Shown: positions 13,224-24,214, counted from the stretch's first letter. The stretch is 26,886 nt of DNA from a virus (IMGVR_UViG_2737471860_000002:1-26886); one strand, 5' to 3'. A program made the numbers and translations. The notes: generated by a model from the sequence alone, not told the origin.

Positions 13224-14129
13224 TTATGCCGGGGTGGTGATGTACGGGCTGTCCACGATCTCCACATCCTTGTACCAGATGTTGGAATCGCCGCCGTTAA
13301 CCAGCATGGCGTCAATAATGAGCTTCGCGTCCGCACGGTTTTTCGGCCCCACCACAAGGGTGGTCGGGCGGATGCCCAGTGGTTCACCGTTGGTGCCCTT
13401 CATGCCCCGCAGTAACTCATTGGCTTTTTTGTAGTTCTCCACCGTCAGTGCCGCACGGGAACCGACGGCGGTCTGCCAGAAGCCGAAGCCTGCATTACAG
13501 CGACCGTCCACCCCGTACAGGAATTCGTTATTCTTGAAGGTGTGCTCGCTGTTCAGATCGTCCAGGGCTTCAAACTTAAAGGCGCGTCGCGTCTGCCAGA
13601 TAATGGGTTTCAGTACCTGCGACTCATCAATCAGGAACCACGGCTCACCCTTGTCTGATGCCGGGGTGCCGACAACGTTGCTGTACGTGCCGTCACCCAG
13701 CGGGTGGTCTTCATCAAAGAAGTTCTGGCCGTCAAAGCACAAAGTTTTGAATCCGGCACACAGCAGGGCGTAACACAGCTTGTCCGGGAACACGGCTGTC
13801 ATACGTCCATAGCGTTCAGCAGTAATGCTGTACTGACCAATCTGGTCATCTTCAATGTGTTCGCGCTTAACGCGAATGGAACTTTCCCAGAGTTTGTTGG
13901 TGATGGTGTAACCATAACCGTCCAGCGTTGCCAGCTGACGCTCACCGACCCATTCTTTGATGTCCGGTAAATCTTTCATCCAGCCGTAAGTGTTGGAGGC
14001 GGACGAACTCGGCACCTCAGAAGCAATGCGATTCCACTGCGGTTCGACACCACTCAGTCCACGGGTAAAGGCGGCGCTCAGGCAGGTGGTCAGTGCATGA
14101 AGGATTTCAGAACTGACAGTCTGTCCCAT
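13224..14129 (-). CDS. Major capsid protein (Mu gpT-like)
   Basis: 301-aa ORF immediately after the protease/scaffold gene (1-nt overlap); size and position match the Mu-type major head subunit. Confidence 0.75.
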   Translation of the reverse strand: MGQTVSSEILHALTTCLSAAFTRGLSGVEPQWNRIASEVPSSSASNTYGWMKDLPDIKEWVGERQLATLDGYGYTITNKLWESSIRVKREHIEDDQIGQYSITAERYGRMTAVFPDKLCYALLCAGFKTLCFDGQNFFDEDHPLGDGTYSNVVGTPASDKGEPWFLIDESQVLKPIIWQTRRAFKFEALDDLNSEHTFKNNEFLYGVDGRCNAGFGFWQTAVGSRAALTVENYKKANELLRGMKGTNGEPLGIRPTTLVVGPKNRADAKLIIDAMLVNGGDSNIWYKDVEIVDSPYITTPA

Positions 14130-15091
14130 TAGTTGTTCTCCTGTTTTGGTTTAGCGGCGAGGAACTCTTCCCCGGTAATACCCATGCTGCGACACATCGC
14201 CAGTTCGGCGTCGGTCAGTGTCTGCGCGGGTTTATCCTTGCCCTGGCTGGGCTTGTCGTTGTTCACCAGCGGCTGTGTACCTCTGGTGTATTCCGCAAAC
14301 TGTTTACGGCCTTCTTCCGTGCGACAGGTGGCAAGGAACATGTCACGGTTTGCCGGGGCCACTTTTCCGGCTTCGATGGCCGCATCCACAAGCGCTTCTG
14401 CTTCCTTCTCTTCAAGTTGCTGAAGGCGTTGTTCTGCGGTTTCGGCACGGTTCAGTGCCAGATTGTGGGTTTCCACCGGCACAAACTTCGTCAGGTCAGG
14501 TGTCTGTGCGCGGTTCAGCGCCACCTGTTCGTTCTCCTGAAGTTGTTTAATGGCGGCCACGGTATCGTCCACCGTGGCAGATTCAGCCAGCCCAAGCAGG
14601 CCGGTGATTTGCACAGGTACTGTCATCGGGTTTTTCTCCGTATTCAGTGCAGGAAAATCCAGGTTAGGTTTGTTGGTCAGCCCGACGCTGGACAGGCGTG
14701 TCACCACACCCTCCGCGTCATGGAAAAACGCCGGGCTGTAATAGCGGTAGCGGCGCTCGCTCAGCATCCAGCGGGCGGACTCACTCCAGGCAACACGGCC
14801 TTCAATGGTGCCGCTGTCCGTCACCCGCAGTTCTTCAACCCAGCCATACGCCGGAGCATCTTCACCACGCGGGCCTTTAATTTCGGTGGCGTGTTCAATG
14901 TCCACCGGAATTTTGATGTCGGACGAACGGGCAACCACCTCATGCGGATTGCGGTTAATCCACGTCCGGCCATCGCGCCCGGTAAACTCACCCGCAGGAA
15001 CGAGTTCAAACCATTCCGGCAGTTGAACAGGTGTCAGCTCAGGGATAGGTTCTGGCAGGGAAAAACACAGCGCCAGCAGTTCCGGTTGCAT
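14129..15091 (-). CDS. Head maturation protease with C-terminal scaffold domain (Mu gpI-like); candidate internal scaffold start at 14626
   Basis: 320-aa ORF; C-terminal half is coiled-coil-like. In-frame internal ATG at 14626 preceded by GGAG about 10 nt upstream. Confidence 0.7.
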   Translation of the reverse strand: MQPELLALCFSLPEPIPELTPVQLPEWFELVPAGEFTGRDGRTWINRNPHEVVARSSDIKIPVDIEHATEIKGPRGEDAPAYGWVEELRVTDSGTIEGRVAWSESARWMLSERRYRYYSPAFFHDAEGVVTRLSSVGLTNKPNLDFPALNTEKNPMTVPVQITGLLGLAESATVDDTVAAIKQLQENEQVALNRAQTPDLTKFVPVETHNLALNRAETAEQRLQQLEEKEAEALVDAAIEAGKVAPANRDMFLATCRTEEGRKQFAEYTRGTQPLVNNDKPSQGKDKPAQTLTDAELAMCRSMGITGEEFLAAKPKQENN

Positions 15092-15140
15092 GTCAGTCTC
15101 CGTCGTTTTGGGTTACCGACGGTCAGTATGCGGGAGGCAG

Positions 15141-15164
15141 AAAAAAAGCCGGATTTACCGGCTT
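15141..15164 (-). terminator. Intrinsic-terminator-like hairpin (7-bp stem AAGCCGG/CCGGCTT, 5-nt loop) followed by a U7 tract on the minus strand; copy A of a duplicated 38-bp element
   Basis: Stem 15146-15152 pairs with 15158-15164; the plus-strand A7 at 15141-15147 is the minus-strand T-run. A near-identical element occurs at 22840-22877. Confidence 0.55.
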
Positions 15165-15184
15165 CACTGAAAACAGGGAAATAC

Positions 15185-15227
15185 CCCTTCAAAACCCCTT
15201 CAAAAACGCCACAGCGCCTTCAAAAAC
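15185..15227. repeat. Three direct repeats of CCTTCAAAA(A) in the F-I intergenic region
   Basis: Read directly: ccccttcaaaa / ccccttcaaaaa / gccttcaaaaa within 43 bp. Confidence 0.6.
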
Positions 15228-15279
15228 GTCATGGCATACACTCACGCCATCAGAATAAAAAACGCGTTTCTGGTGCGTT

Positions 15280-16056
15280 TCAGGTGGGATTTACGGCGCT
15301 GTCAAATCGGGCCTGTTTTGTCGCCAGCTGGCGCGCCAGTTCCTGCTCACGGTTTATGCCGGGATTGTAGTTCCAGCCCGGATCAATCCCTTCCGGCACA
15401 TCTTCCTCTTCGCCCGTACGTTTGTTCACCCAGCGGACAGTTCTGATTTCCGGCGCTTCGGTGTGAATGGTGCCCTGTGCCGCCAGTTGCGCATATTCAC
15501 CACGGCTGACCTGACGGATGGTGCATTTGCATCCCCAGCCGTTAGGGGCAAAATGTGTCTGCCAGAACGGATGATCCACCGGCAGACACAGACGCGCCCA
15601 TTTCACATGCTCCGCCCGGTGCTCACGGGATGGCCCCAGCTCATAAATCAGATACGGCATGGCCCGCTTTGTCCGCTGAATGCGTTCCCACTGGCCCGCC
15701 GCGCGGGCGGTGCGCATGTTGGTGTCAAAAATCGTGCGGAGGCGGCGGTCGCTGCCCAACTGTACTGTGCGCGTTTCGCCCGTCAGCGGATCATCCATCT
15801 CCTGAACGCCCCACCATCCGCGTTTTATCAGCAGCGGTTGCAGCGCCTCCCGGAACTCGCTGAACGTCTGCCCGCTTTGCAGGGCGTCTTCCACAAGGGC
15901 TTTCACATCCGACAACAAATCCAGTTGCAGCATTTTTGCCACGGTGAAGCTGTTCCGGTGCTCTTCCCGCCATACATCCCGGTAATCAAAACCGGGGCGC
16001 AGCTTCTTCGCCTTCAGCCACGCCAGCGCCTCTTTCGGGATGAGGGTTTCACGCAT
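15280..16056 (-). CDS. Mu F-like head morphogenesis protein
   Basis: ORF track gives 15280..16113; I place the start at the Met at 16056 (MRETLIPKEA...), giving an 8-nt overlap with the portal stop. Position after the portal gene. Confidence 0.65.
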   Translation of the reverse strand: MRETLIPKEALAWLKAKKLRPGFDYRDVWREEHRNSFTVAKMLQLDLLSDVKALVEDALQSGQTFSEFREALQPLLIKRGWWGVQEMDDPLTGETRTVQLGSDRRLRTIFDTNMRTARAAGQWERIQRTKRAMPYLIYELGPSREHRAEHVKWARLCLPVDHPFWQTHFAPNGWGCKCTIRQVSRGEYAQLAAQGTIHTEAPEIRTVRWVNKRTGEEEDVPEGIDPGWNYNPGINREQELARQLATKQARFDSAVNPT

Positions 16057-17620
16057 GAGCAGCGTCTCCCAGCGCACGCGCCTTAAAGCACACCTCTGCC
16101 AGTTGCAGGGCAAAGTCGTCCGCGTTCAGCGTTTCCTGAAGCTCAGGCAGGCGTTTCAGAAAGTCATCAAAACTGTCGCATTCCTGCGCCAGTGTCAGCA
16201 CCGGGTTCGTGAACGCCTCGCCGGTTTTCTGCCAGTCACGCAGGGCATCATCCACCATCTGTGCCAGTTCGTCGGGGTGTTCCCGGTTCAGGGCGACGCG
16301 CTCGCGGTTCATCGCCATTTCACCCGGCATCCCGGCGGAAATCGGATGCAGAACATCAGCCCCTTCGTCCGGTTCAGCCAGGCCGAACCGGTCCCGCAGC
16401 TCCGATTCCTGAACCCGCATCCCCCGGTCAATCAGCGGCACCAGAGCATCTGTCAGCGCCTTCAGATCTTCTGCTTCACTGATACGCAGAACAACACGGG
16501 GGTAGTGCGCCTGTGGCCCGTAGTTGGCCTCGATATAGGGACGCACCAGATATTCATTCAGCGTGTTAGCCAGCTGTCGCGCGTCCCAGCGCACAATGTC
16601 CATGCGCACCTGATTGTGCACGTCCGCCTGTGAACGCGAACTGCCGTTATCCGTGGTCATGGTCTGCCCCAGCACAGCCTTACTGATTTGTGCATCACAC
16701 CATTCCGCCATTTCACGGAACAGTGCGCCGCCGTTATTCCGGCTGGCGGTTTCCTGCATCTCCAGTTGCATAGACTGCGGAATGGCACACCCTGCATCCG
16801 AGGCAATGGAGGCAATCGCATCAATCAGTACGCGGATTTGCTCCTCCGTGGCGTTGGGACCGTATTTCCCCACCGTAACCGGAATGCCGAATTTTTCCGC
16901 GAATGCCCACCAGTCACGCACGGTATAGGATTTCAGCATGTACATCACCGCCACCAGACGGGCCAGACCGTTACGCAGCGGCAGACCGGATTTCAGACGC
17001 GGCTGGTGAACAATGAATTTTCCCGGTGTCAGCGGTACGCCATCCACCGGTTCATCGTCAGTCAGCAGGCGGAACTGGCGCAGCGTGGGCTTTTCGGCTT
17101 TCAGGAAACGGGGATCAACCCACTCATAATCACGGGGCACCCAGTGGTTGTTGCGGGTGTTCCACAGAATTTCACAGACCGCCACGCCTTTTCCCAGCCC
17201 GTCGAGCAGATCAAACATCAGTTCGGGGATTTGCGGCGCGGCCATCAGCTCACGGATGGCATCCGCCAGCTGCACATCGGCATCGTCGTCACTGGCAGCC
17301 ACCACCACCGGCTCGATACCCGCCACCGTCAGCTTGCGGGTGCGCAGTACCGAGGCGTAATGCAAATCGCGTTCTTCCATCTCTTCGGCAAGGATAAAAA
17401 AATCACGCGTGATGCCGTCGGCGGCATTGCGCAGAATGCCTGCCAGCCTGCCGGGATTCAGCCCGGAAGCAATGCTGATGCCCGGCGAGGCCGAGCGCAC
17501 GCCAGCCTGACGCGGACGGGCCTGTATTTCATCGAGCGTCTCTTTTTTGAGCCTGTCTTCCTCACCGGTTGCCGGGTTCAGCAGACGGCGAACGGCCCCG
17601 GCCAGTTGTTTCAGGTTCAC
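16049..17620 (-). CDS. Portal protein (Mu gpH-like)
   Basis: 523-aa ORF directly after the large terminase (ATGA overlap); size and position typical. Confidence 0.75.
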   Translation of the reverse strand: MNLKQLAGAVRRLLNPATGEEDRLKKETLDEIQARPRQAGVRSASPGISIASGLNPGRLAGILRNAADGITRDFFILAEEMEERDLHYASVLRTRKLTVAGIEPVVVAASDDDADVQLADAIRELMAAPQIPELMFDLLDGLGKGVAVCEILWNTRNNHWVPRDYEWVDPRFLKAEKPTLRQFRLLTDDEPVDGVPLTPGKFIVHQPRLKSGLPLRNGLARLVAVMYMLKSYTVRDWWAFAEKFGIPVTVGKYGPNATEEQIRVLIDAIASIASDAGCAIPQSMQLEMQETASRNNGGALFREMAEWCDAQISKAVLGQTMTTDNGSSRSQADVHNQVRMDIVRWDARQLANTLNEYLVRPYIEANYGPQAHYPRVVLRISEAEDLKALTDALVPLIDRGMRVQESELRDRFGLAEPDEGADVLHPISAGMPGEMAMNRERVALNREHPDELAQMVDDALRDWQKTGEAFTNPVLTLAQECDSFDDFLKRLPELQETLNADDFALQLAEVCFKARALGDAAHA

Positions 17621-19152
17621 AGTAAACCTCCCTCATTTTTCAGGCCGCGTGTCAGCTTCATCTGGCGGCGCGCGTTGCGTTCTTCCGGTTTTGCCGGGCG
17701 GTTCAGGCGGTGCAGCTCGTAACGGTGGCAGTCATCTTTACTGGCAAGGAAGCCCAGGAAAATGGCCACAGCGGCGTCGCCGTGACGCTTGCGGCCATCG
17801 CTGCCTTTAGTACGGGTATCGTCAATGCCGGGAACGCCACGCAGTAACTGAATGGCCCCGAGGTCATTGATCACGTCTTCATGCTTCGGAAGGATCAGCT
17901 CATCATCTTCAAATGCTGCACGGAAACGGGGCATGTTTTCGCGGTAGAACGCCACGGACAGCATCACCTGTTCCACTTCGTCGCCGTACCGCTCCGCCGC
18001 CTGTTCTGCCAGATACTGACCATTCCCCCGCGCATCCATTTTGATACCGTCACGACGGGGCAGACGATCGCAAAGCCAGAACAGCACCTGCTCCTGCTGT
18101 TTAAACGGCACATTGCCAAGCTCAACCAGGAACGGCACCTCGCGGGTGGTGTCATTGTTCACCGTCACCGGGGCCAGTACGGTCAGGTCACCCGAACGCG
18201 CAAAGTCTTCCCCCAGACAGTGGCGCAGGTTCTTCGGGAGTTTTTCCAGTTCAGGGCGCACCACTGTTTCCAGCCATTCCCGGATATCTGCCCGGCGCTG
18301 GCTTTCCGTCAGTGCGTTAAATTCCGGTGTGCCGGTAAAGCGCAACACTTTCCCGGTGCCACGGGCCGCACGTTCACGCAGTGAGCGGGGGATATACGTG
18401 CCGCCGCCGTTTTTCGGGACGCAGTAATATTCCTCCAGTGCGTCTTCGCGGGTGGCGGTATTTCGCAGCAGGCCTTCTTTCCATTCCGCCTCGGCTTCCG
18501 GTGACCACACCATGCCGCGCACCTGACAGATACGCCGGTACAGCCCGTCATTGCAGGCGTCGTCCAGCGTGATGGTGTGAATGCTGTAATCTTTTTTGCC
18601 CGCGCGGCTTTCCTGAATCAGCTGGTTAAACAGGTTGTCCACGCCGTCATGGGTGGAAATAAGGCGAATTTTGCCGCCCCATGTTTTCAGCGGCAGCACA
18701 GCCTTCAGCAGCTCGTCCAGTTTTTCATGGAACGCGGCTTCGTCGATGGTGACATTCCCCTGCATCCCGCGAATGTTGCTCGGGTTGCTGGACAGTGCCT
18801 TGACCTTAAAACCGCTGGCGAAGTACACGACGAACGTCAGAATGGCCTTGTCTTCGTCGGTGATCACTTCCTCGCAGATTTCTTCCGCTGCCGCATTAAA
18901 CGCTTTCGCCCACATCGCCACGGCGTCGATAAATTCGCGGGCCATCTCCTTATTCGAACCGATATAAAAGTGATCGCGCCCGCCGTCTTCCTTCTTCAGC
19001 GATGCCGTCAGTGCCGCATCTGCCGCCTCCGCCCAGGTTAAACCGGTACGGCGGGATTTCTCTGCAATTTTCAGGTCGGCATCATCCGCCACCCAGCGTT
19101 TCTGATACGGCAGCAGGACATCGTATTCACTGAATGTGTTCATCCTGGTCAT
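17617..19152 (-). CDS. Terminase large subunit
   Basis: 511-aa ORF after the small terminase (4-nt overlap); N-terminal Walker-A-like KSRRTGLT and acidic C-terminal nuclease-like region. Confidence 0.75.
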   Translation of the reverse strand: MTRMNTFSEYDVLLPYQKRWVADDADLKIAEKSRRTGLTWAEAADAALTASLKKEDGGRDHFYIGSNKEMAREFIDAVAMWAKAFNAAAEEICEEVITDEDKAILTFVVYFASGFKVKALSSNPSNIRGMQGNVTIDEAAFHEKLDELLKAVLPLKTWGGKIRLISTHDGVDNLFNQLIQESRAGKKDYSIHTITLDDACNDGLYRRICQVRGMVWSPEAEAEWKEGLLRNTATREDALEEYYCVPKNGGGTYIPRSLRERAARGTGKVLRFTGTPEFNALTESQRRADIREWLETVVRPELEKLPKNLRHCLGEDFARSGDLTVLAPVTVNNDTTREVPFLVELGNVPFKQQEQVLFWLCDRLPRRDGIKMDARGNGQYLAEQAAERYGDEVEQVMLSVAFYRENMPRFRAAFEDDELILPKHEDVINDLGAIQLLRGVPGIDDTRTKGSDGRKRHGDAAVAIFLGFLASKDDCHRYELHRLNRPAKPEERNARRQMKLTRGLKNEGGLL

Positions 19153-19730
19153 ACACTAATCCCCAGTATTTCACGTTTGATGGTGTCAGCCGCACCGCCT
19201 GACAGACCGCCTGTTCTGACCAGCTCTTCGGTTTTCTCTGCCATCTCCTGCGCAAACGCATCGCGGATCGCTTTCTCGCGTTTATGGCTGGTCATGGCTG
19301 CCGCTTCCAGACGCTGGGCAACCAGCGCCAGTTGCCCCAGCGCCTTCGGTGCAACGGGCTTGTCGTCTTCTGCCATCGACATGGACGTTTCAAAGGCCAG
19401 CGTTTTTACAAACTCCATCAGCAGCTTGCCGACGTCTGACGTCGGCGCGGAACCCAGCTTTGCCGCCCAGACTTCGGCCATTTCGCGGGAGGCGCGGATT
19501 TTGGCCCCGACTTTTTCCATGCGGATGGCATAGCGGTTTAAGCCCGTCCGGCTTAACTGCATCTCTTCCGGCAGGTTATGTTCGTCAATCAGGGCGTTGA
19601 TGGCTTCGCGGATTTCTTCCTGTGTGTGCCGCTTTTCCCGCAGCATCTGATGCAACTGCTCCCGGATGCTGTCCGGGAGTAAATCCACTTTGGAAAGACG
19701 GCCACGGGTGGGGCGTTGTTCATTTTCCAT
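19149..19730 (-). CDS. Terminase small subunit (Mu gpD-like)
   Basis: ORF track gives a start at 19751; I prefer the ATG at 19730 (MENEQRPTRG...), preceded by AGGAGG 7 nt upstream. Helix-rich basic protein ahead of the large terminase. Confidence 0.65.
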   Translation of the reverse strand: MENEQRPTRGRLSKVDLLPDSIREQLHQMLREKRHTQEEIREAINALIDEHNLPEEMQLSRTGLNRYAIRMEKVGAKIRASREMAEVWAAKLGSAPTSDVGKLLMEFVKTLAFETSMSMAEDDKPVAPKALGQLALVAQRLEAAAMTSHKREKAIRDAFAQEMAEKTEELVRTGGLSGGAADTIKREILGISV

Positions 19731-19867
19731 GTGTGCCCTCCTGTTGCTCACTACGCTGTGAACTTTCGTATGCAGATTTCAGCGCGCCACTCTGGATTTC
19801 ACGCCATGTCAGGTTGTGCGCCAGACGGCGGAGTTCATCACGGGACGCTTTACTTATCGGATTCTTT

Positions 19868-20167
19868 TTACGGTTCACGACGGCCCCCGTCTTCAGTTCC
19901 CGGTGTTTTCAGACCGGCGTATATTTCTTCGCGAACGGACCGGATATCCTTACCCAGCAGCTTCCACAGCCGCGCACATGCCGGTGATGAACGCAGGGCA
20001 CATTTCATGGGGGTATCCGGTGCATCCGGGTTCCATGGCTTTCCTGTATGTTGTTCGTATGCACGGACAATGGCGTTTTGCTCGATATCTGCCATGACAA
20101 GGCAGTACGCCAGCTGCCGCACGACGGCCCGTTCTCCGCGACTTAACGGCTTCAGTTTTCGGGTCAT
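19868..20167 (-). CDS. Hypothetical protein (99 aa)
   Basis: ORF tightly packed after the 97-aa gene (3-nt spacing); no family recognised. Confidence 0.5.
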   Translation of the reverse strand: MTRKLKPLSRGERAVVRQLAYCLVMADIEQNAIVRAYEQHTGKPWNPDAPDTPMKCALRSSPACARLWKLLGKDIRSVREEIYAGLKTPGTEDGGRREP

Positions 20168-20169
20168 GC

Positions 20170-20463
20170 TCAGTCTCTCGCACGGGGTTTTTTAACGCCC
20201 GGCACACCGGACAGGCCATTTGCCACATCCTCGCCGCTGCCGGTGATTTCAGCCACGTAACAGCCGCCCACATCAGACAGACGAACCAGCCCCTGCTCGC
20301 GCAACCATGCAAGCTGGGTGCGTACCACATCACGGGATACCTTATGACCGTAAGCCTGAAGGCAGGTCTGCAACACGGATTCATTCGCGCTGTCGCCACA
20401 GTCCAGCAGGGAACGCAGCAACACAAGACGACGGTCTTCAGTGAGGATCTCTTTCATCGCCAT
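20170..20463 (-). CDS. Hypothetical protein, possible winged-helix DNA-binding fold (97 aa)
   Basis: TAATG-type overlap with the upstream gene; RRLVLLRSLL...VSRDVVRTQLAWLREQGLV looks wHTH-like. Inference only. Confidence 0.5.
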   Translation of the reverse strand: MAMKEILTEDRRLVLLRSLLDCGDSANESVLQTCLQAYGHKVSRDVVRTQLAWLREQGLVRLSDVGGCYVAEITGSGEDVANGLSGVPGVKKPRARD

Positions 20464-20768
20464 TAATTTTTTTCCTTTAACTCGTTCTCTAATAACAAAT
20501 CACTGATGCGGGATACCTGGCGGATGGATGGCCCCAGCTCTTTGATTTCTCCCCGCAGGTTGCTGATATCCAGTTGCAGACGGTGGAACTCATCACGATC
20601 AGGTAGCTGATGTACCTGGCTTTCCATCACCGACACGCGGGAACGCAACAAATCAAACTCTTCGCGTTTGACGTACGTCTTCGCCAGAATCAACTGAAGC
20701 AGGTTTATTGCTGTCATTAACAGCGCCCACAGAATGGGCCAGTTGGCTCTGATCATTTCCCAGGACAC
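20463..20768 (-). CDS. Small membrane protein with N-terminal TM helix and coiled coil (i-spanin-like or Mu-specific membrane protein)
   Basis: 101 aa; hydrophobic WPILWALLMTAINLLQLILA followed by a heptad-like charged region. Confidence 0.5.
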   Translation of the reverse strand: MSWEMIRANWPILWALLMTAINLLQLILAKTYVKREEFDLLRSRVSVMESQVHQLPDRDEFHRLQLDISNLRGEIKELGPSIRQVSRISDLLLENELKEKN

Positions 20769-20980
20769 GTCTTCCTCCTGCGTTCCCGCATCTGCTGACA
20801 GTCAATACAGGTCACCACATCCGGCAGCGCCGCAAGGCGCTGTACCGGAATAACGTTCCCGCAGTCATTGCAGAAGCCCCGACTGTGGGGCGCTTCTTTT
20901 GTCCGTATCTGCCAGGCTTTAACGACGCTCTGACGCTCGTTCAGAACCACTTCACTGATGCGGTCGATTTCGTCGGTCAT
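20753..20980 (-). CDS. TraR/DksA-family C4 zinc-finger protein
   Basis: 75 aa with CNDCG...(17 aa)...CIDCQ, the CxxC-x17-CxxC spacing characteristic of this family. Confidence 0.7.
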   Translation of the reverse strand: MTDEIDRISEVVLNERQSVVKAWQIRTKEAPHSRGFCNDCGNVIPVQRLAALPDVVTCIDCQQMRERRRKTCPGK

Positions 20981-21585
20981 TTCGGCCCCGCAGATATTTT
21001 GTGACGACTTGATTTGCTGTAACGGGCAAAGCCGTCAAGGGTTCGCACGCCGAGATAGCCCAGCGCAGGGGTAAGCAACATCAGCGTGATATCCCAGTCC
21101 GGTGATGGCATATGCAGCGTGATACCTCTGGCACCGGCAATGGCTCCGGCAATCTGGCCGCAGGAAAGCAACAGCACATAGGCAAGACTGCTGTAACAGG
21201 ACAGGCGGGCCAGCAACGGGCGCGTCTGGCGCACATAGCTGTCCGTGGCGTTGTCACCATTGCGGATGGTTTCCTGCTGTTCGTGGTGTGCGGCCTGCTG
21301 ATCAGCCAGCACCAGCTTCTGCCGTTCCACCTCCAGTTGTTGCAACTGAATTTTCAGGGTTTCCAGCTGCATCAGTTGCTCCGGTGACAGCATCACCAGC
21401 TTTTGTTCCAGAATGCGTTGCTGTTCAGCCACCGGCAGGCTTTCCCGGACGCTTTCCACCATACCGGCCACCGAGTCAGCGGCGGCAGATGTACTGCCAC
21501 CAAACCAGCGCCCGACGGAACGAATCAGCCCCGGCCCGGCTTTCAGCAGAACAGAGGCGATGCCTGAAAGGGTTAACGGATCCAT
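20977..21585 (-). CDS. Hypothetical lysis-region protein with central coiled coil and two C-terminal hydrophobic segments
   Basis: 202-aa ORF; 4-nt overlap with the downstream TraR-like gene; composition read from translation. Confidence 0.5.
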   Translation of the reverse strand: MDPLTLSGIASVLLKAGPGLIRSVGRWFGGSTSAAADSVAGMVESVRESLPVAEQQRILEQKLVMLSPEQLMQLETLKIQLQQLEVERQKLVLADQQAAHHEQQETIRNGDNATDSYVRQTRPLLARLSCYSSLAYVLLLSCGQIAGAIAGARGITLHMPSPDWDITLMLLTPALGYLGVRTLDGFARYSKSSRHKISAGPK

Positions 21586-21983
21586 GAATCCCCCTTATGA
21601 AAACGGCGCTGATGTTTATAAAGTGCCGCGCAAAAAATACCGCCCAGCCAGAACGCCAGCTGATAAGGCTCCTTCAGATAAAGAATGCCGAATGTCAGCA
21701 TGAAAAAACCAACGGCCCAGACCACCCATGACCACACGACAATTCGAAGGGAAGCGGCCCGGAAACGCCTTTTGGGTTGCAGGCGATAAGGTACGTTGCC
21801 CAGCTGGAAACTGTGAATCAGACAGAGTGTCGCGCCGTATGCCAGCACCATGACCGCAAACGCCCGCCATCCGGCAAAACAGCTCGCCAGAAAAAGTACT
21901 GTCGACAGCCCCAGAAACGACCACTGGCACAACATAAAGCGGGAGTAAATAACGCGAACAAAAAGACTATTCATTCTGTGCAT
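21573..21983 (-). CDS. Polytopic membrane protein (about 4 TM segments), holin-like candidate
   Basis: ORF track gives a longer 193-aa version; I favour the start at 21983 (MHRMNSLFV...), with AAGGA about 9 nt upstream, because the N-terminal extension overlaps the 75-aa ORF and looks non-protein-like. Confidence 0.5.
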   Translation of the reverse strand: MHRMNSLFVRVIYSRFMLCQWSFLGLSTVLFLASCFAGWRAFAVMVLAYGATLCLIHSFQLGNVPYRLQPKRRFRAASLRIVVWSWVVWAVGFFMLTFGILYLKEPYQLAFWLGGIFCAALYKHQRRFHKGDSWIR

Positions 21984-22194
21984 TGAGTTTTTCCTTGTAC
22001 TTCTGGCACTGCCAGAAAATGTCCCGTGTATCCACGGAGTTCCAGCCACGCATGTAGTAGCTGGCGTGTGTGCCGTCATGGCCGGTATAGTCCAGCGGTT
22101 TCGGGGGCGGACCTCCGGCCATGCGGTGCAGAACCTCCTGACGCAGGCGGTCACGCCGCCCGGCTTTCAGTGAGGCATCCCAGCCTTTACCCAT
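21967..22194 (-). CDS. Small basic hypothetical protein (75 aa) immediately after the endolysin
   Basis: 8-nt overlap with the endolysin stop, consistent with translational coupling. Confidence 0.45.
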   Translation of the reverse strand: MGKGWDASLKAGRRDRLRQEVLHRMAGGPPPKPLDYTGHDGTHASYYMRGWNSVDTRDIFWQCQKYKEKLNAQNE

Positions 22195-22792
22195 ATCCCC
22201 CCCGCGTGGCGGACATGATGCCTGGAGGGGTATTGATGATTTCCAGACAGGCGTCGGTCAGCTTTTCCATGCGGTTAAACCATCCGTTCAGGTATTTGCC
22301 CTGGGCGGGTTTTGATTTGATGATGTCGGCATAAAAGCGGGAACGACGGACAATGCAGCGGGTCAGCAACCAGTCCGGGGTGGACAGGCTCACGGCCTTA
22401 CGGGTACGCGGGCCGATGATGCCGTCAGCATCCACATCAGCGGCTTCCTGCAAAATCCTGATGGCTTTTTTAACGCCATGCTGAACCGCCGCATCGAACA
22501 CAAACATCGCCACGCCATCAGGCCACTGGTCACATCCGGCAGGCAGCCAGTAATCGCGCCAGTAAATCTGCGCAACCTGTTCGCGGGTCAAATCCCTGAT
22601 GCGGGTATCCGGTTTGCCGTCGCCGTTGACATCAGTTTTGCCATCAATCACACCGTCGCGGCGGTCAGAAATGCCGTATTTGGTTTCACCGCCACGGTCA
22701 GTGGGGTCATTGACATAGACGCCTTCGATATCGGGACGCAGAATAAAATTCAGCGCATGCTCAAAGGCTGGGGAGAATTTTTGATTTTCCAT
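22187..22792 (-). CDS. Endolysin, GH108-type lysozyme with C-terminal peptidoglycan-binding domain
   Basis: 201 aa; N-terminal ...DIEGVYVNDPTDRGGETKYGISD... matches the GH108 signature (EGGY, NDP.D.GG.T..GI) as I recall it; first gene after the Mor-like gene. Confidence 0.75.
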   Translation of the reverse strand: MENQKFSPAFEHALNFILRPDIEGVYVNDPTDRGGETKYGISDRRDGVIDGKTDVNGDGKPDTRIRDLTREQVAQIYWRDYWLPAGCDQWPDGVAMFVFDAAVQHGVKKAIRILQEAADVDADGIIGPRTRKAVSLSTPDWLLTRCIVRRSRFYADIIKSKPAQGKYLNGWFNRMEKLTDACLEIINTPPGIMSATRGGYG

Positions 22793-22804
22793 AAAAGCAC
22801 CTGT

Positions 22805-22831
22805 GAAGCAGATTTAAACGTGGTCTGCTTC
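22805..22831 (-). promoter_or_regulatory. Hairpin (8-bp stem GAAGCAGA/TCTGCTTC, 11-nt loop) immediately upstream of the endolysin ribosome-binding site
   Basis: Inverted repeat read directly at 22805-22812 and 22824-22831. Confidence 0.4.
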
Positions 22832-22847
22832 ATGGTGCCGGAGGCAT

Positions 22848-22871
22848 AAAAAAAGCCGGATTTACCGGCTT
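22848..22871 (-). terminator. Intrinsic-terminator-like hairpin plus U7 tract directly downstream of the Mor-like gene; copy B of the duplicated 38-bp element
   Basis: Stem 22853-22859 pairs with 22865-22871; plus-strand A7 at 22848-22854. The wider element GGAGGCA-N-AAAAAAAGCCGGATTTACCGGCTTCA-N-TGA spans 22840-22877. Confidence 0.55.
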
Positions 22872-22877
22872 CATTGA

Positions 22878-23327
22878 TTAAGGGCGTCGTGGCGGACGAC
22901 GAACGGGGTGAGGCAGGTTCGGGGAGTGGTAGAACAAATCCGGCTGGTATTTATTACGCTCCAGACGCCGCATCCGTTTGATGGCCTTGTAGACGGTTTT
23001 ATACGTCACTCCGTAACGCTGAACCAGTTCAGGAATATTATGGCCGTTAAAATCACGCCAGATACGCATATCCCGGACAAGATTCTCCAGAATATTCCCC
23101 CTCGGAACATAAACCTGCATCCCGCCAATATGGCGACAAATCGCCACAACCAGCTCAAGGGAATGAGCAGGGTCTGCGCCAATCCGGGCCAGCTCTTTAC
23201 GCAGCAGTGCGTTCAGTTCAGAAAGTAACGCCGGATAAGCGGTGTTTTCCTGGTAATCGTTAAGATATTCCAGAACGCTGTCGTCCCGAAGGTCTTCGAA
23301 TAAATCCTGCTCTTTCATCTGTTTCAT
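22878..23327 (-). CDS. mor: Mor/C-family transcriptional activator
   Basis: 149 aa; strong resemblance by memory to Mu Mor (DLF.DL.DD..L..L, ALLAELN.LLR.EL.R.G.DPAHSLE.VVAIC.H.GG.QVY.PRG, RD.RIW.DFNG.N..EL...YGVT..TVYKAI.RMRR); lies directly after gemA as in Mu. Confidence 0.7.
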   Translation of the reverse strand: MKQMKEQDLFEDLRDDSVLEYLNDYQENTAYPALLSELNALLRKELARIGADPAHSLELVVAICRHIGGMQVYVPRGNILENLVRDMRIWRDFNGHNIPELVQRYGVTYKTVYKAIKRMRRLERNKYQPDLFYHSPNLPHPVRRPPRRP

Positions 23328-23875
23328 ACAGCAATTCTCCCGCTGTTTCGTGCGCGGGCATATGCACTGGTCAGTGCATCATAGCCGCGCAGCTCCCGCC
23401 CGGATGGGCTTACAGGTAAAGGCACACCATGTCGGGCAAAGGCTTCCCGGATGCAGCGCATATGCCACTGTTTGAGCGTTTCGAGCACAACCTGCAACGA
23501 TTTCCCGTGACACCAGGCCAGAGTGGAAACACCCTGGCCGCCATTACGTCTGGCCGTCAGGCGTTCAACGTATTTGTCCAGCGCGGCGTCGCTGCTATCA
23601 GCGACAAAGCCATCCTGAAACATCTGCTGCCAGATTTTATAAATCTTCTCGCGCGGTGTGACATACCCCTTAAAGCGACGGCGGGGATGTTTTTTCTGCT
23701 TTTTAAAACCGCGCTCTTTCATGGCATCGAGCACACGTTCCAGTTGTGCGACGGTCAGCTCGCGGCAACTGGTCTTGCCTGTGCACTGCACCAGAAAGGC
23801 GCGGTAAGTGTCATCGTCGAGTTGTAGATCACGACGGGCGACATGAATTAATTTAATCAGGGATGTGCGATTCAT
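23324..23875 (-). CDS. gemA: GemA-like protein (Mu gp16 family)
   Basis: ORF track gives a start at 23911; I prefer the ATG at 23875 (MNRTSLIKLIHVARRDLQLDDDTYRAF...), preceded by GGAGG. Position upstream of mor as in Mu. Confidence 0.65.
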   Translation of the reverse strand: MNRTSLIKLIHVARRDLQLDDDTYRAFLVQCTGKTSCRELTVAQLERVLDAMKERGFKKQKKHPRRRFKGYVTPREKIYKIWQQMFQDGFVADSSDAALDKYVERLTARRNGGQGVSTLAWCHGKSLQVVLETLKQWHMRCIREAFARHGVPLPVSPSGRELRGYDALTSAYARARNSGRIAV

Positions 23876-23895
23876 TATCGTACCTCCGAAAAAGA

Positions 23896-23915
23896 GGCGG
23901 TGCGGCAACACCGCC
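23896..23915 (-). promoter_or_regulatory. Hairpin (7-bp stem GGCGGTG/CACCGCC, 6-nt loop) followed on the minus strand by UCUUUUU, immediately upstream of the gemA RBS
   Basis: Inverted repeat read directly; terminator-like on the minus strand, and it also lies in the 5' leader of the plus-strand ORF. Confidence 0.4.
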
Positions 23916-23947
23916 AGAATCCACTCACTAAACAGAGGAAACTTTTT

Positions 23948-24214
23948 ATGAAAAACAGTGAACAGCCTTATGATGTTGCAGGGTATGTCATTGCCTCAAG
24001 GTTGCTGATACTCCTTGTCAGAAAGGGGCTGATTACCGCAGAGGAAGGCAAAACGATCCTCGAAGCCGCAGCAAGCGGAGCGGCAGAGGCTCCGGCATTG
24101 AGAACAACGAATAATCCCATTCTGCAAATATCACAGCTAATCACTGATACCATCAGTTTGTTAGACCAAGATTCTGATGAATATCAAAAGCCTCAGCCAT
24201 CTGAGCATCCGTAA
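23948..24214 (+). CDS. Hypothetical opposite-strand small protein (88 aa)
   Basis: ORF track gives 23900..24214; I place the start at the ATG at 23948, with AGAGGA 8-9 nt upstream. Mixed charged/hydrophobic composition. It is the only plus-strand candidate in the window, and its 3' end is convergent with and overlaps the next minus-strand gene by about 60 nt. Confidence 0.4.
   Translation: MKNSEQPYDVAGYVIASRLLILLVRKGLITAEEGKTILEAAASGAAEAPALRTTNNPILQISQLITDTISLLDQDSDEYQKPQPSEHP

Follow-up and report, generated by a model that had tools for sequence, protein, structure and literature searches.

Bacteriophage Mu turns on its middle operon (gp18-20 and C) from a single-copy promoter, Pm, which is activated by Mor. 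In the Mor dyad of Pm, a G/C-rich hexamer is flanked by two 5-bp inverted repeats; the dyad occupies the 16 bp from -51 to -36 with its centre at -43.5, and is preceded by the bases G, T, A, A and A at -57 to -53 (PMC4390567, PMC4287176). According to the papers on Pm, the promoter has a -10 but no -35 element, and Mor alone protects -56 to -36; bases just downstream of Mor and C sites are also reported to matter for activation. In record AF083977, positions 9163-9233 of Mu are annotated as 'middle promoter, activated by Mor', and a terminator predicted by TransTermHP (9179-9200) lies within this interval. [quoted passage not shown] Like Pm, these promoters have no -35 and carry a dyad of the Mor/C family centred at -43.5, in their case a C box (TTAT-N5-6-ATAA; CATAA(C/T)CCC in Plys, PI and PP). 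Predicted terminators are found just upstream of Plys and PI in Mu, too. Late promoters of the P2/P4 type, which are Ogr/Delta-dependent, also serve several late operons with the same activator dyad at each in place of a good -35, but their activator is a zinc-finger protein unrelated to Mor, the centre of the dyad is near -55, and no terminator is built in.

The DNA considered here (hereafter, the window) is the whole 26,886-nt stretch of viral sequence IMGVR_UViG_2737471860_000002:1-26886. It is a Mu-like prophage of E. coli whose genes in the window all lie on the minus strand. In strain PSS-15, the annotated genes follow the order known from Mu (transposase, B, Gam, GemA, Mor, endolysin, terminase, portal, gpF, protease, gpT, tail, baseplate), and the GemA protein of the prophage is 80% identical to that of Mu. 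A preliminary description had reported a 38-bp element at 15133-15170 and 22840-22877, with two differences between the copies, ahead of the lysis block and the protease/head block. A pattern search agrees, finding exactly these two occurrences in the window (zero and two mismatches, respectively) and none in 100 dinucleotide-preserving shuffles of it. Extended without gaps, the repeat (family D9) reaches 42 nt at 93% identity, and both copies read TCA(G/A)TGAAGCCGGTAAATCCGGCTTTTTTT(C/A)TGCCTCC(C/G)GCA on the minus strand. The GC-rich hairpin followed by U7 that had been noticed on this strand was recovered in both copies by a terminator scan (8-bp stem with five G-C pairs, 5-nt loop, T7); each folds at -12.6 kcal/mol, a stability reached by none of 200 shuffles, with the centroid hairpin of copy 1 at -12.6 and its MFE at -12.8 kcal/mol. 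Both copies have the G+C-rich stem, short loop, U-run and position downstream of a gene that define an intrinsic terminator in sequence terms, and the window returned no Rfam match at gathering thresholds.

The gene context bears out the described position, since endolysin and head protease genes follow the two copies. Copy 2 is flanked by the Mor-family gene and the GH108 endolysin gene; the TAA stop of mor directly adjoins it, with the element or hairpin beginning about 2-5 nt past the stop. Copy 1 follows the gene for a gpF-like minor head protein (15280-16113) and precedes that for the gpI-like head protease, with its hairpin 115 nt past the gpF-like stop. The ATG at 15091 is about 41-42 nt from copy 1 and that at 22792 about 47-48 nt from copy 2, in agreement with the 42 and 48 nt given earlier. 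Copies 2 and 1 occupy the places of the Mu late promoters Plys (before endolysin) and PI (before protease I), respectively. Coordinates are collected in Table 1.

Table 1. Predicted regulatory features and adjoining genes of the window (positions counted from its first letter)
Feature	Coordinates	Strand	Basis or remark
Repeat copy 2, predicted composite of terminator and Mor-type promoter, before lysis/terminase/portal operon	22836..22877	-	Alignment with Mu Pm; positional equivalent of Pm
Putative Mor box copy 2, AATGAAGCCGGTAAAT, 13/16 bases as in Mu AGTAAAGCCGGTTAAT	22860..22875	-	Predicted -51 to -36; Mu position from PMC4390567, PMC4287176
Predicted terminator hairpin copy 2, GAAGCCGG-TAAAT-CCGGCTTT	22852..22872	-	dG -12.6 kcal/mol, z -3.4
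Seven-T run copy 2, overlapping 3' end of hairpin	22848-22854	-	Terminator scan
Predicted -10 hexamer copy 2, CACCAT	22832..22837	-	Same register as TATCCT of Mu Pm
Predicted transcription start copy 2, an A	near 22824	-	By analogy with Mu; leader 32 nt
Predicted fold-back leader of endolysin gene	22796..22839	-	Folding, read-through RNA vs RNA from +1
Repeat copy 1, predicted composite of terminator and Mor-type promoter, before head protease/capsid/tail operon, in Mu PI position	15129..15170	-	Alignment
Putative Mor box copy 1, AGTGAAGCCGGTAAAT, 14/16 bases as in Mu	15153..15168	-	Degenerate box search
Predicted terminator hairpin copy 1	15145..15165	-	Terminator scan and fold, z -3.2
Seven-T run copy 1, overlapping 3' end of hairpin	15141-15147	-	Terminator scan
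Predicted -10 hexamer copy 1, CATACT	15125..15130	-	Register with Mu
Predicted transcription start copy 1, a G	near 15117	-	By analogy with Mu; leader 26 nt
Leader inverted repeat of protease gene, CCGTCG ... CGACGG	15100..15122	-	Folding
Only Mor/C-family activator gene in window	22878..23327	-	63% to Mu Mor, 32% to Mu C
Putative third Mor box, hairpin-less, AGGGAAAACGGTAAAT, inside baseplate-V gene	4252..4267	-	Degenerate box search; kept in relatives
Predicted -10 hexamer of third site, TATTAT	4223-4228	-	Spacing as at hairpin-less protease copies
GH108 endolysin gene, first after copy 2	22187..22792	-	Gene context
Head maturation protease gene (gpI-like), first after copy 1	14129..15091	-	Gene context

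On alignment, what identifies the element is its homology to Mu Pm, which the preliminary description had missed. Mu DNA immediately following mor, ACAGTAAAGCCGGTTAATCCGGCTTTTTTTACGTCCTCAATATCCT, aligns without gaps to both copies over about 46 nt as TCA(G/A)TGAAGCCGGTAAATCCGGCTTTTTTT(C/A)TGCCTCC..CA...T and has the same hairpin (8-bp stem, 5-nt loop, T7) right after the mor stop; a published cloning primer named for Mu Pm carries the same bases as this Mu stretch. Taken with the stated bases, the positions in the Pm papers make AGTAA-AGCCGG-TTAAT the Mu box, and they put +1 at the 54th base of the alignment register and TATCCT at -13 to -8. In the same register, the box reads AGTGA-AGCCGG-TAAAT in copy 1 (14 of 16 bases shared with Mu) and AATGA-AGCCGG-TAAAT in copy 2 (13 of 16). 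The distance from its start to that of the -10 is 38 nt in Mu as well as in the two copies, and 38-39 nt in 21 relatives. The repeat itself covers about -52 to -11, with the -10 hexamer directly after it; this hexamer matches the consensus at four of six bases in copy 1 and at three of six, a weak match, in copy 2. At the -35 position both copies have TCCGGC (one of six matches), a -35 being absent likewise at Pm. The proximal UP subsite (-57 to -52) is GTTTTC in copy 1, TTAATC in copy 2 and GTAAAC in Mu; the copies are A/T-rich there, without the A-tract that is important in Mu. The stretch between T-run and -10 also differs, being TGCCTCC.GCA here and ACGTCCTCAA in Mu Pm, and the copy 1 spacer resembles that of Mu PI.

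We therefore regard the element, with a probability of roughly 0.85, as a composite of a Mor-type promoter and an overlapping terminator that is homologous to Mu Pm; Mor binding, activation, transcription starts and termination are predicted by analogy with Mu. A promoter running from about -52 to -11 within the repeat disposes of the puzzle that too little room is left downstream for a conventional one. As had been supposed, a consensus scan detects no sigma-70-type promoter in either gap between element and start codon, but the predicted promoter overlaps the element itself. Terminator and late-activator site had been put forward as alternatives. Every sequence feature of an intrinsic terminator is there, and so is the Mor box of the sole Mor/C activator; the two functions would apply together, and the box is the offset AGTGA-AGCCGG-TAAAT rather than the hairpin dyad. 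It comprises the 5' arm and the loop of the hairpin and forms an imperfect 5-6-5 dyad, distinct from the dyad of the hairpin. A cryo-EM preprint describes a Mor tetramer that covers about 26 bp, so the 3' arm may also be contacted, and the limits of the box are possibly wider than 16 bp. A search of a literature library under 't9.2', a name for the early-operon terminator, found nothing.

The Mor-like protein of the prophage shares 63% identity with Mu Mor (E 4e-63) and 32% with Mu C. The helix-turn-helix segment is TVYKAIKRMRRL in the prophage and TVYKAIRRMRRL in Mu, and the recognition helix is identical save for one K/R change. No second Mor/C gene was found in the window, in the whole PSS-15 prophage or in the ~20-kb stretch of each of ten relatives, and the C box is absent from both copies. 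Clamp-binding motifs of the Mor/C family have been defined as Qx[D/E][L/M]F and QPDLF, with a C-terminal motif of the YQPDLF type reported for MuC and a putative motif at the N terminus only for Mu Mor (2026 paper, PMC12867686). In the prophage activator, EQDLF is found at the N terminus and YQPDLF towards the C terminus, the latter on an extension by which the protein is 20 residues longer at this end than Mu Mor, whose own C terminus reads QPSLL. The protein thus joins Mor-type DNA recognition with a C-type tail, a combination that fits a late activator. With a C gene missing from the prophage, promoters of the Mor type would stand where Mu has the C-dependent Plys and PI, and the lack of both C protein and C box points to a cascade of two steps (early to Mor to late) versus three in Mu. 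Where Mu has one Pm, this prophage has at least two copies and a probable third box, which would drive the lysis and morphogenesis operons directly.

Ten relative loci, selected through the Mor protein (proteins 58-76% identical) and not through the element, come from Pluralibacter, Raoultella, Klebsiella, Serratia, Kluyvera and Brenneria. The lysis copy is present in all ten as GAAGCCGGT(A/T)AATCCGGCTTTTTTT.TGCC, 81-96 nt before the endolysin start, with a dG of -12.6 to -12.8 and T7, while the upstream sequence is different in each. An extra gene parts it from mor in 10/10, which ties the element to the lysis operon. This small gene (loci L003-L012; for instance, 10420-10720 of L005) has a start that resembles a signal peptide or membrane segment and may be an accessory insertion that shares the transcript of the early operon; in the window, mor adjoins the element with no intervening gene, as in Mu. 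At the protease copy, the full element is found in the window and in three of the ten relatives. Two further relatives have both arms altered together and the T-run lost (AAACCGG/CCGGTTT in L003, AAGGCGG/CCGCCTT in L012), and in four the 3' arm and T-run have decayed (dG -4.7 to -8.8 kcal/mol, 3-5 T), giving loss of the T-run at 6/10 protease copies and loss of the matched 3' arm as well in four of those six. All ten protease copies nevertheless keep a GGGAAAGCGGTTAAT-like box and an xACACT hexamer at a distance constant within 1 nt. By boundary type, the T-run is kept at 11/11 early/late boundaries (plus Mu) and lost at 6/10 late/late boundaries. This conservation pattern indicates that the promoter is the constant part, with the terminator kept at the early/late boundary and optional between two late operons. 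The invariant 3' arm and T-run of the lysis copy could, however, be due to needs of the promoter rather than to termination. The loop variant, TAAAT or TTAAT, is identical at both promoters in all ten readable genomes (the window and nine relatives), and we considered whether this reflects co-evolution with the activator; since the third site and the lysis copy differ in this respect in at least two IMG/VR contigs, it is not used as evidence.

The search for more copies that the preliminary description had proposed extended beyond these ten relatives to wider collections. An exact scan of IMG/VR yielded 123 instances, of which 84 are upstream of endolysin, 22 upstream of protease and 13 upstream of Mu gp18 (true Pm). 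The endolysin instances comprise 49 distinct 60-mers, all with a CAnnAT-type hexamer in register; this set was picked by hairpin sequence and is thus silent on how often the hairpin is lost. Among 5426 complete E. coli genomes, 46 contain at least 80% of window positions 14000-24000 (10 kb) at 94-96% identity. The element occurs only in these 46, at a median of two and at most six places per genome, and the E. coli records have nothing annotated under it. The unannotated isolate Klebsiella phage Kp4866-3 carries the same pair of elements; an additional Mor-box match at its positions 8363-8378 looks like chance. Mu has one perfect Mor box, at Pm, and its further matches with two mismatches look like chance, too. 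A 45-nt element query against a phage collection gave no match, meaning no near-identical copy in the isolated phages there, as the query is too short for identity at the Mu level.

The hairpin dyad AAGCCGG/CCGGCTT might itself be the activator site, in place of the offset 5-6-5 box: at the lysis copy its arms match perfectly and do not vary, L003 and L012 alter both arms together at the protease copy, and the preprint tetramer covers about 26 bp. We consider this unlikely. The published mutational and footprint data, at -51 to -36, fit only AGTAA-AGCCGG-TTAAT, and the centre of the hairpin dyad falls about 6 bp further downstream, on a base and not between bases; a site at about -37 was dropped on these grounds, the Pm-paper positions placing the box 6 bp further upstream. 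Moreover, L006, L008 and the third site (4252-4267) have the box with no matching 3' arm. It is quite unlikely, too, that the repeat is an intrinsic terminator and nothing else, placed at two operon boundaries and taking no part in initiation, with the late promoters elsewhere. The Mu counterpart is an experimentally defined promoter, even if TransTermHP predicts it as a terminator, and the gap of about 41-48 nt to the start codons is short and offers no sigma-70-type promoter to the consensus scan. Both copies do satisfy all Rho-independent sequence criteria on the coding strand, and copy 2 sits just past a stop codon. Yet the protease copy in relatives loses the T-run, and often the 3' arm, while retaining the 5' arm, loop and -10 distance, which is not how a terminator would decay. 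Between genera, moreover, stem changes are confined to a single position, in two loci; the usual drift of terminators is by compensatory changes.

An attenuator or antitermination target, through which late genes would be expressed by regulated read-through of the hairpin, is very improbable. A terminator directly before the late genes and a second conserved hairpin after it are in keeping with such a device, but no antiterminator pairing with the terminator stem and no leader peptide were seen, and the predicted masking of the ribosome site by the second hairpin in read-through RNA argues that this RNA is meant to be silent. Homology to an activator-dependent promoter accounts for expression with no read-through. 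Nothing supports the attenuator suggested in the preliminary description. The two copies also form a direct repeat flanking a 7.7-kb module, as would suit a small REP- or MITE-like repeat that is mobile or prone to recombination, or a by-product left by chance when modules recombined. This explanation is barely credible: many copies at unrelated chromosomal sites, the mark of REP and MITE elements, were not found in the 5426 E. coli genomes, where the element is confined to prophage carriers and always has these gene boundaries and this strand.

Because of their positions, both copies were compared with the C-dependent promoters of Mu, Plys and PI; only the PI core is homologous. In alignment A1, the gpF-protease spacer is homologous to the Mu G-I spacer in two blocks. 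Block 1 is the region of the Mu strong gyrase site, and block 2 is the PI core plus leader, CCTCCCGCA(A/T)ACTGAC, within which the copy 1 core CCTCCCGCATACTGAC matches CCTCCCGCAAACTGAC of Mu PI. Between the blocks, Mu has a C box, whereas this lineage has a Mor box and hairpin. As aligned, one core promoter has exchanged its activator site, and a PI core that goes with a C box in Mu and a Mor box here suggests that temporal circuits of phages are rewirable by swapping an activator site of ~30 bp.

The same spacer has other features. Upstream of copy 1, at 15171-15260 on the minus strand, there are three TTTTGAAGG(G) repeats (GACGTTTTTGAAGGCGCTGTGGCGTTTTTGAAGGGGTTTTGAAGGGG) that align with the block beside the annotated strong gyrase cut site of Mu between G and I, ATTTTTTAAAACGCGCCACGGGATTTTTAAACC; the relatives have TTAAACGCGCCACGGCGTTTTTAAACG in this block. 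The stretch 15171-15260 is probably the central gyrase site of the prophage. A further terminator-like hairpin, ATGGCGTGAGTGTATGCCAT then GACGTTTTTG (15231-15250, minus strand), is found between the gpF-like stop and the gyrase-site-like block, and Mu, too, has a predicted terminator between G and PI (17908-17953).

Searching the window with the degenerate box gave one further site, AGGGAAAACGGTAAAT at 4267..4252 on the coding strand, against a chance expectation of 0.24 matches per window; this site (4252-4267) has no hairpin and no T-run. Relatives with a baseplate-V protein 63-70% identical keep both the box and a -10-like hexamer. Codon usage there is fixed to box-compatible bases, with Gly as GGG in 37/37, Asn as AAT in 37/37 and Val only as GTA or GTT, versus two to four codons for each of the invariant residues nearby in the gene. 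The third site is likely a promoter and a candidate counterpart of Mu PP, which is likewise inside a gene, gene N; it is less secure than copies 1 and 2.

A second inverted repeat follows the -10 hexamer at each Mor- or C-dependent promoter examined. The predicted stem starts exactly 1 nt past the -10 in 60/63 endolysin leaders, 6/6 Pm leaders and 5/12 protease leaders, which, with start positions transferred from Mu Pm, places nearly all of the 5' arm upstream of +1. In the copy 2 leader, GGCACC and UGAAGCAGA, upstream of the predicted +1 save for the last base, pair with UCUGCUUCA and the Shine-Dalgarno sequence GGUGCU; the fold is worth -21.2 kcal/mol in read-through RNA versus -5.7 from +1. 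At copy 1, the 3' arm overlaps the GGAG Shine-Dalgarno, the 5' arm is again upstream of the predicted +1 save for its last base, and the corresponding values are -11.6 and -2.4 kcal/mol. The arms covary over 31 distinct versions: 5' arms paired with their own 3' arms average -9.2 kcal/mol versus -5.2 when swapped. Opening the region from Shine-Dalgarno to AUG costs a median of 10.9 kcal/mol in read-through RNA versus 4.3 from +1 across 31 leaders. In 22 of 31 leaders, the 17 nt naturally found upstream do better than at least 95% of their shuffled versions. The leaders of Mu Pm, Plys and PI (L178: 9207-9263, 10440-10495 and 18014-18071) behave in the same way, at 10.4-14.2 versus 2.2-2.5 kcal/mol. 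The leader is thus predicted from folding, given the start sites assigned above, to mask the ribosome site (Shine-Dalgarno and start codon) in read-through RNA only.

A precedent is the 'fold-back inhibition' by which Tn10/IS10 is protected from external promoters (Davis, Simons and Kleckner 1985, as cited in PMC13181058). There, as here, sequence upstream of an element's own start pairs with the ribosome-binding region, such that only read-through transcripts are masked. The Tn10/IS10 device guards a transposase gene, whereas the one predicted here from folding would serve a phage temporal switch and is joined to a terminator and an activator site in a module of ~90 nt. A literature search for fold-back inhibition at Mu promoters found no paper. 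We tentatively propose, as an idea that may well prove wrong, that terminator, activator-dependent promoter and fold-back leader form a three-layer insulation module common to Mu-type middle and late promoters, including Pm, Plys and PI of Mu, with the late programme here hanging on one Mor/C-hybrid protein. In such a module the terminator would halt incoming transcription, the promoter would lie over or beside it, and the leader would have its 5' pairing partner (the -10 hexamer plus bases -7 to -1) upstream of the transcription start. By folding back, read-through RNA would conceal its Shine-Dalgarno sequence and start codon, RNA initiated by the activator would be open, and the lysis and head genes would stay silent both transcriptionally and translationally until Mor acts.

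The element would accordingly be read twice, as DNA and as RNA. As DNA it would be an activator-dependent sigma-70 promoter without a -35 element: the Mor-like protein would bind the 16-bp box A(G/A)TGA-AGCCGG-TAAAT at about -51 to -36 and recruit RNA polymerase to the weak -10 (CATACT or CACCAT) after the repeat, with starts near 15117 and 22824. As RNA, an incoming transcript would fold the 8-bp GC-rich hairpin with its U7 and stop. In the early phase, transcription from the early promoter would pass through gemA and mor and for the most part be halted at the copy 2 hairpin and U7, which would end the early operon after mor. The switch would come when accumulated Mor occupies the boxes and brings in sigma-70 polymerase, as is known for Mu Pm. 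Copy 2 would then turn on the lysis/terminase/portal operon and copy 1 the protease/capsid/tail operon, the hairpin of copy 1 ending the first late operon (lysis to gpF); distal baseplate and fibre genes would probably be turned on from the third site.

The element belongs with a kind of signal already known, the Mor-dependent promoter of the Pm type with an overlapping terminator, here deployed in what appears to be a shortened cascade. A hairpin that had gone unannotated becomes a usable annotation, a mark of late promoters in Mu-like prophages, from which transcription units and start sites can now be predicted. It marks a family of such prophages in Escherichia, Klebsiella, Raoultella, Serratia, Kluyvera, Pluralibacter and Brenneria, among them prophages of STEC, ETEC and clinical strains. 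Mu Mor might cross-activate these promoters. The part most worth experiment is the fold-back leader which, if confirmed, would mean that the classic Mu system is also guarded at the level of translation. The prophage family as a whole appears to run a shorter cascade than Mu, from early genes through Mor to late genes, with no C.
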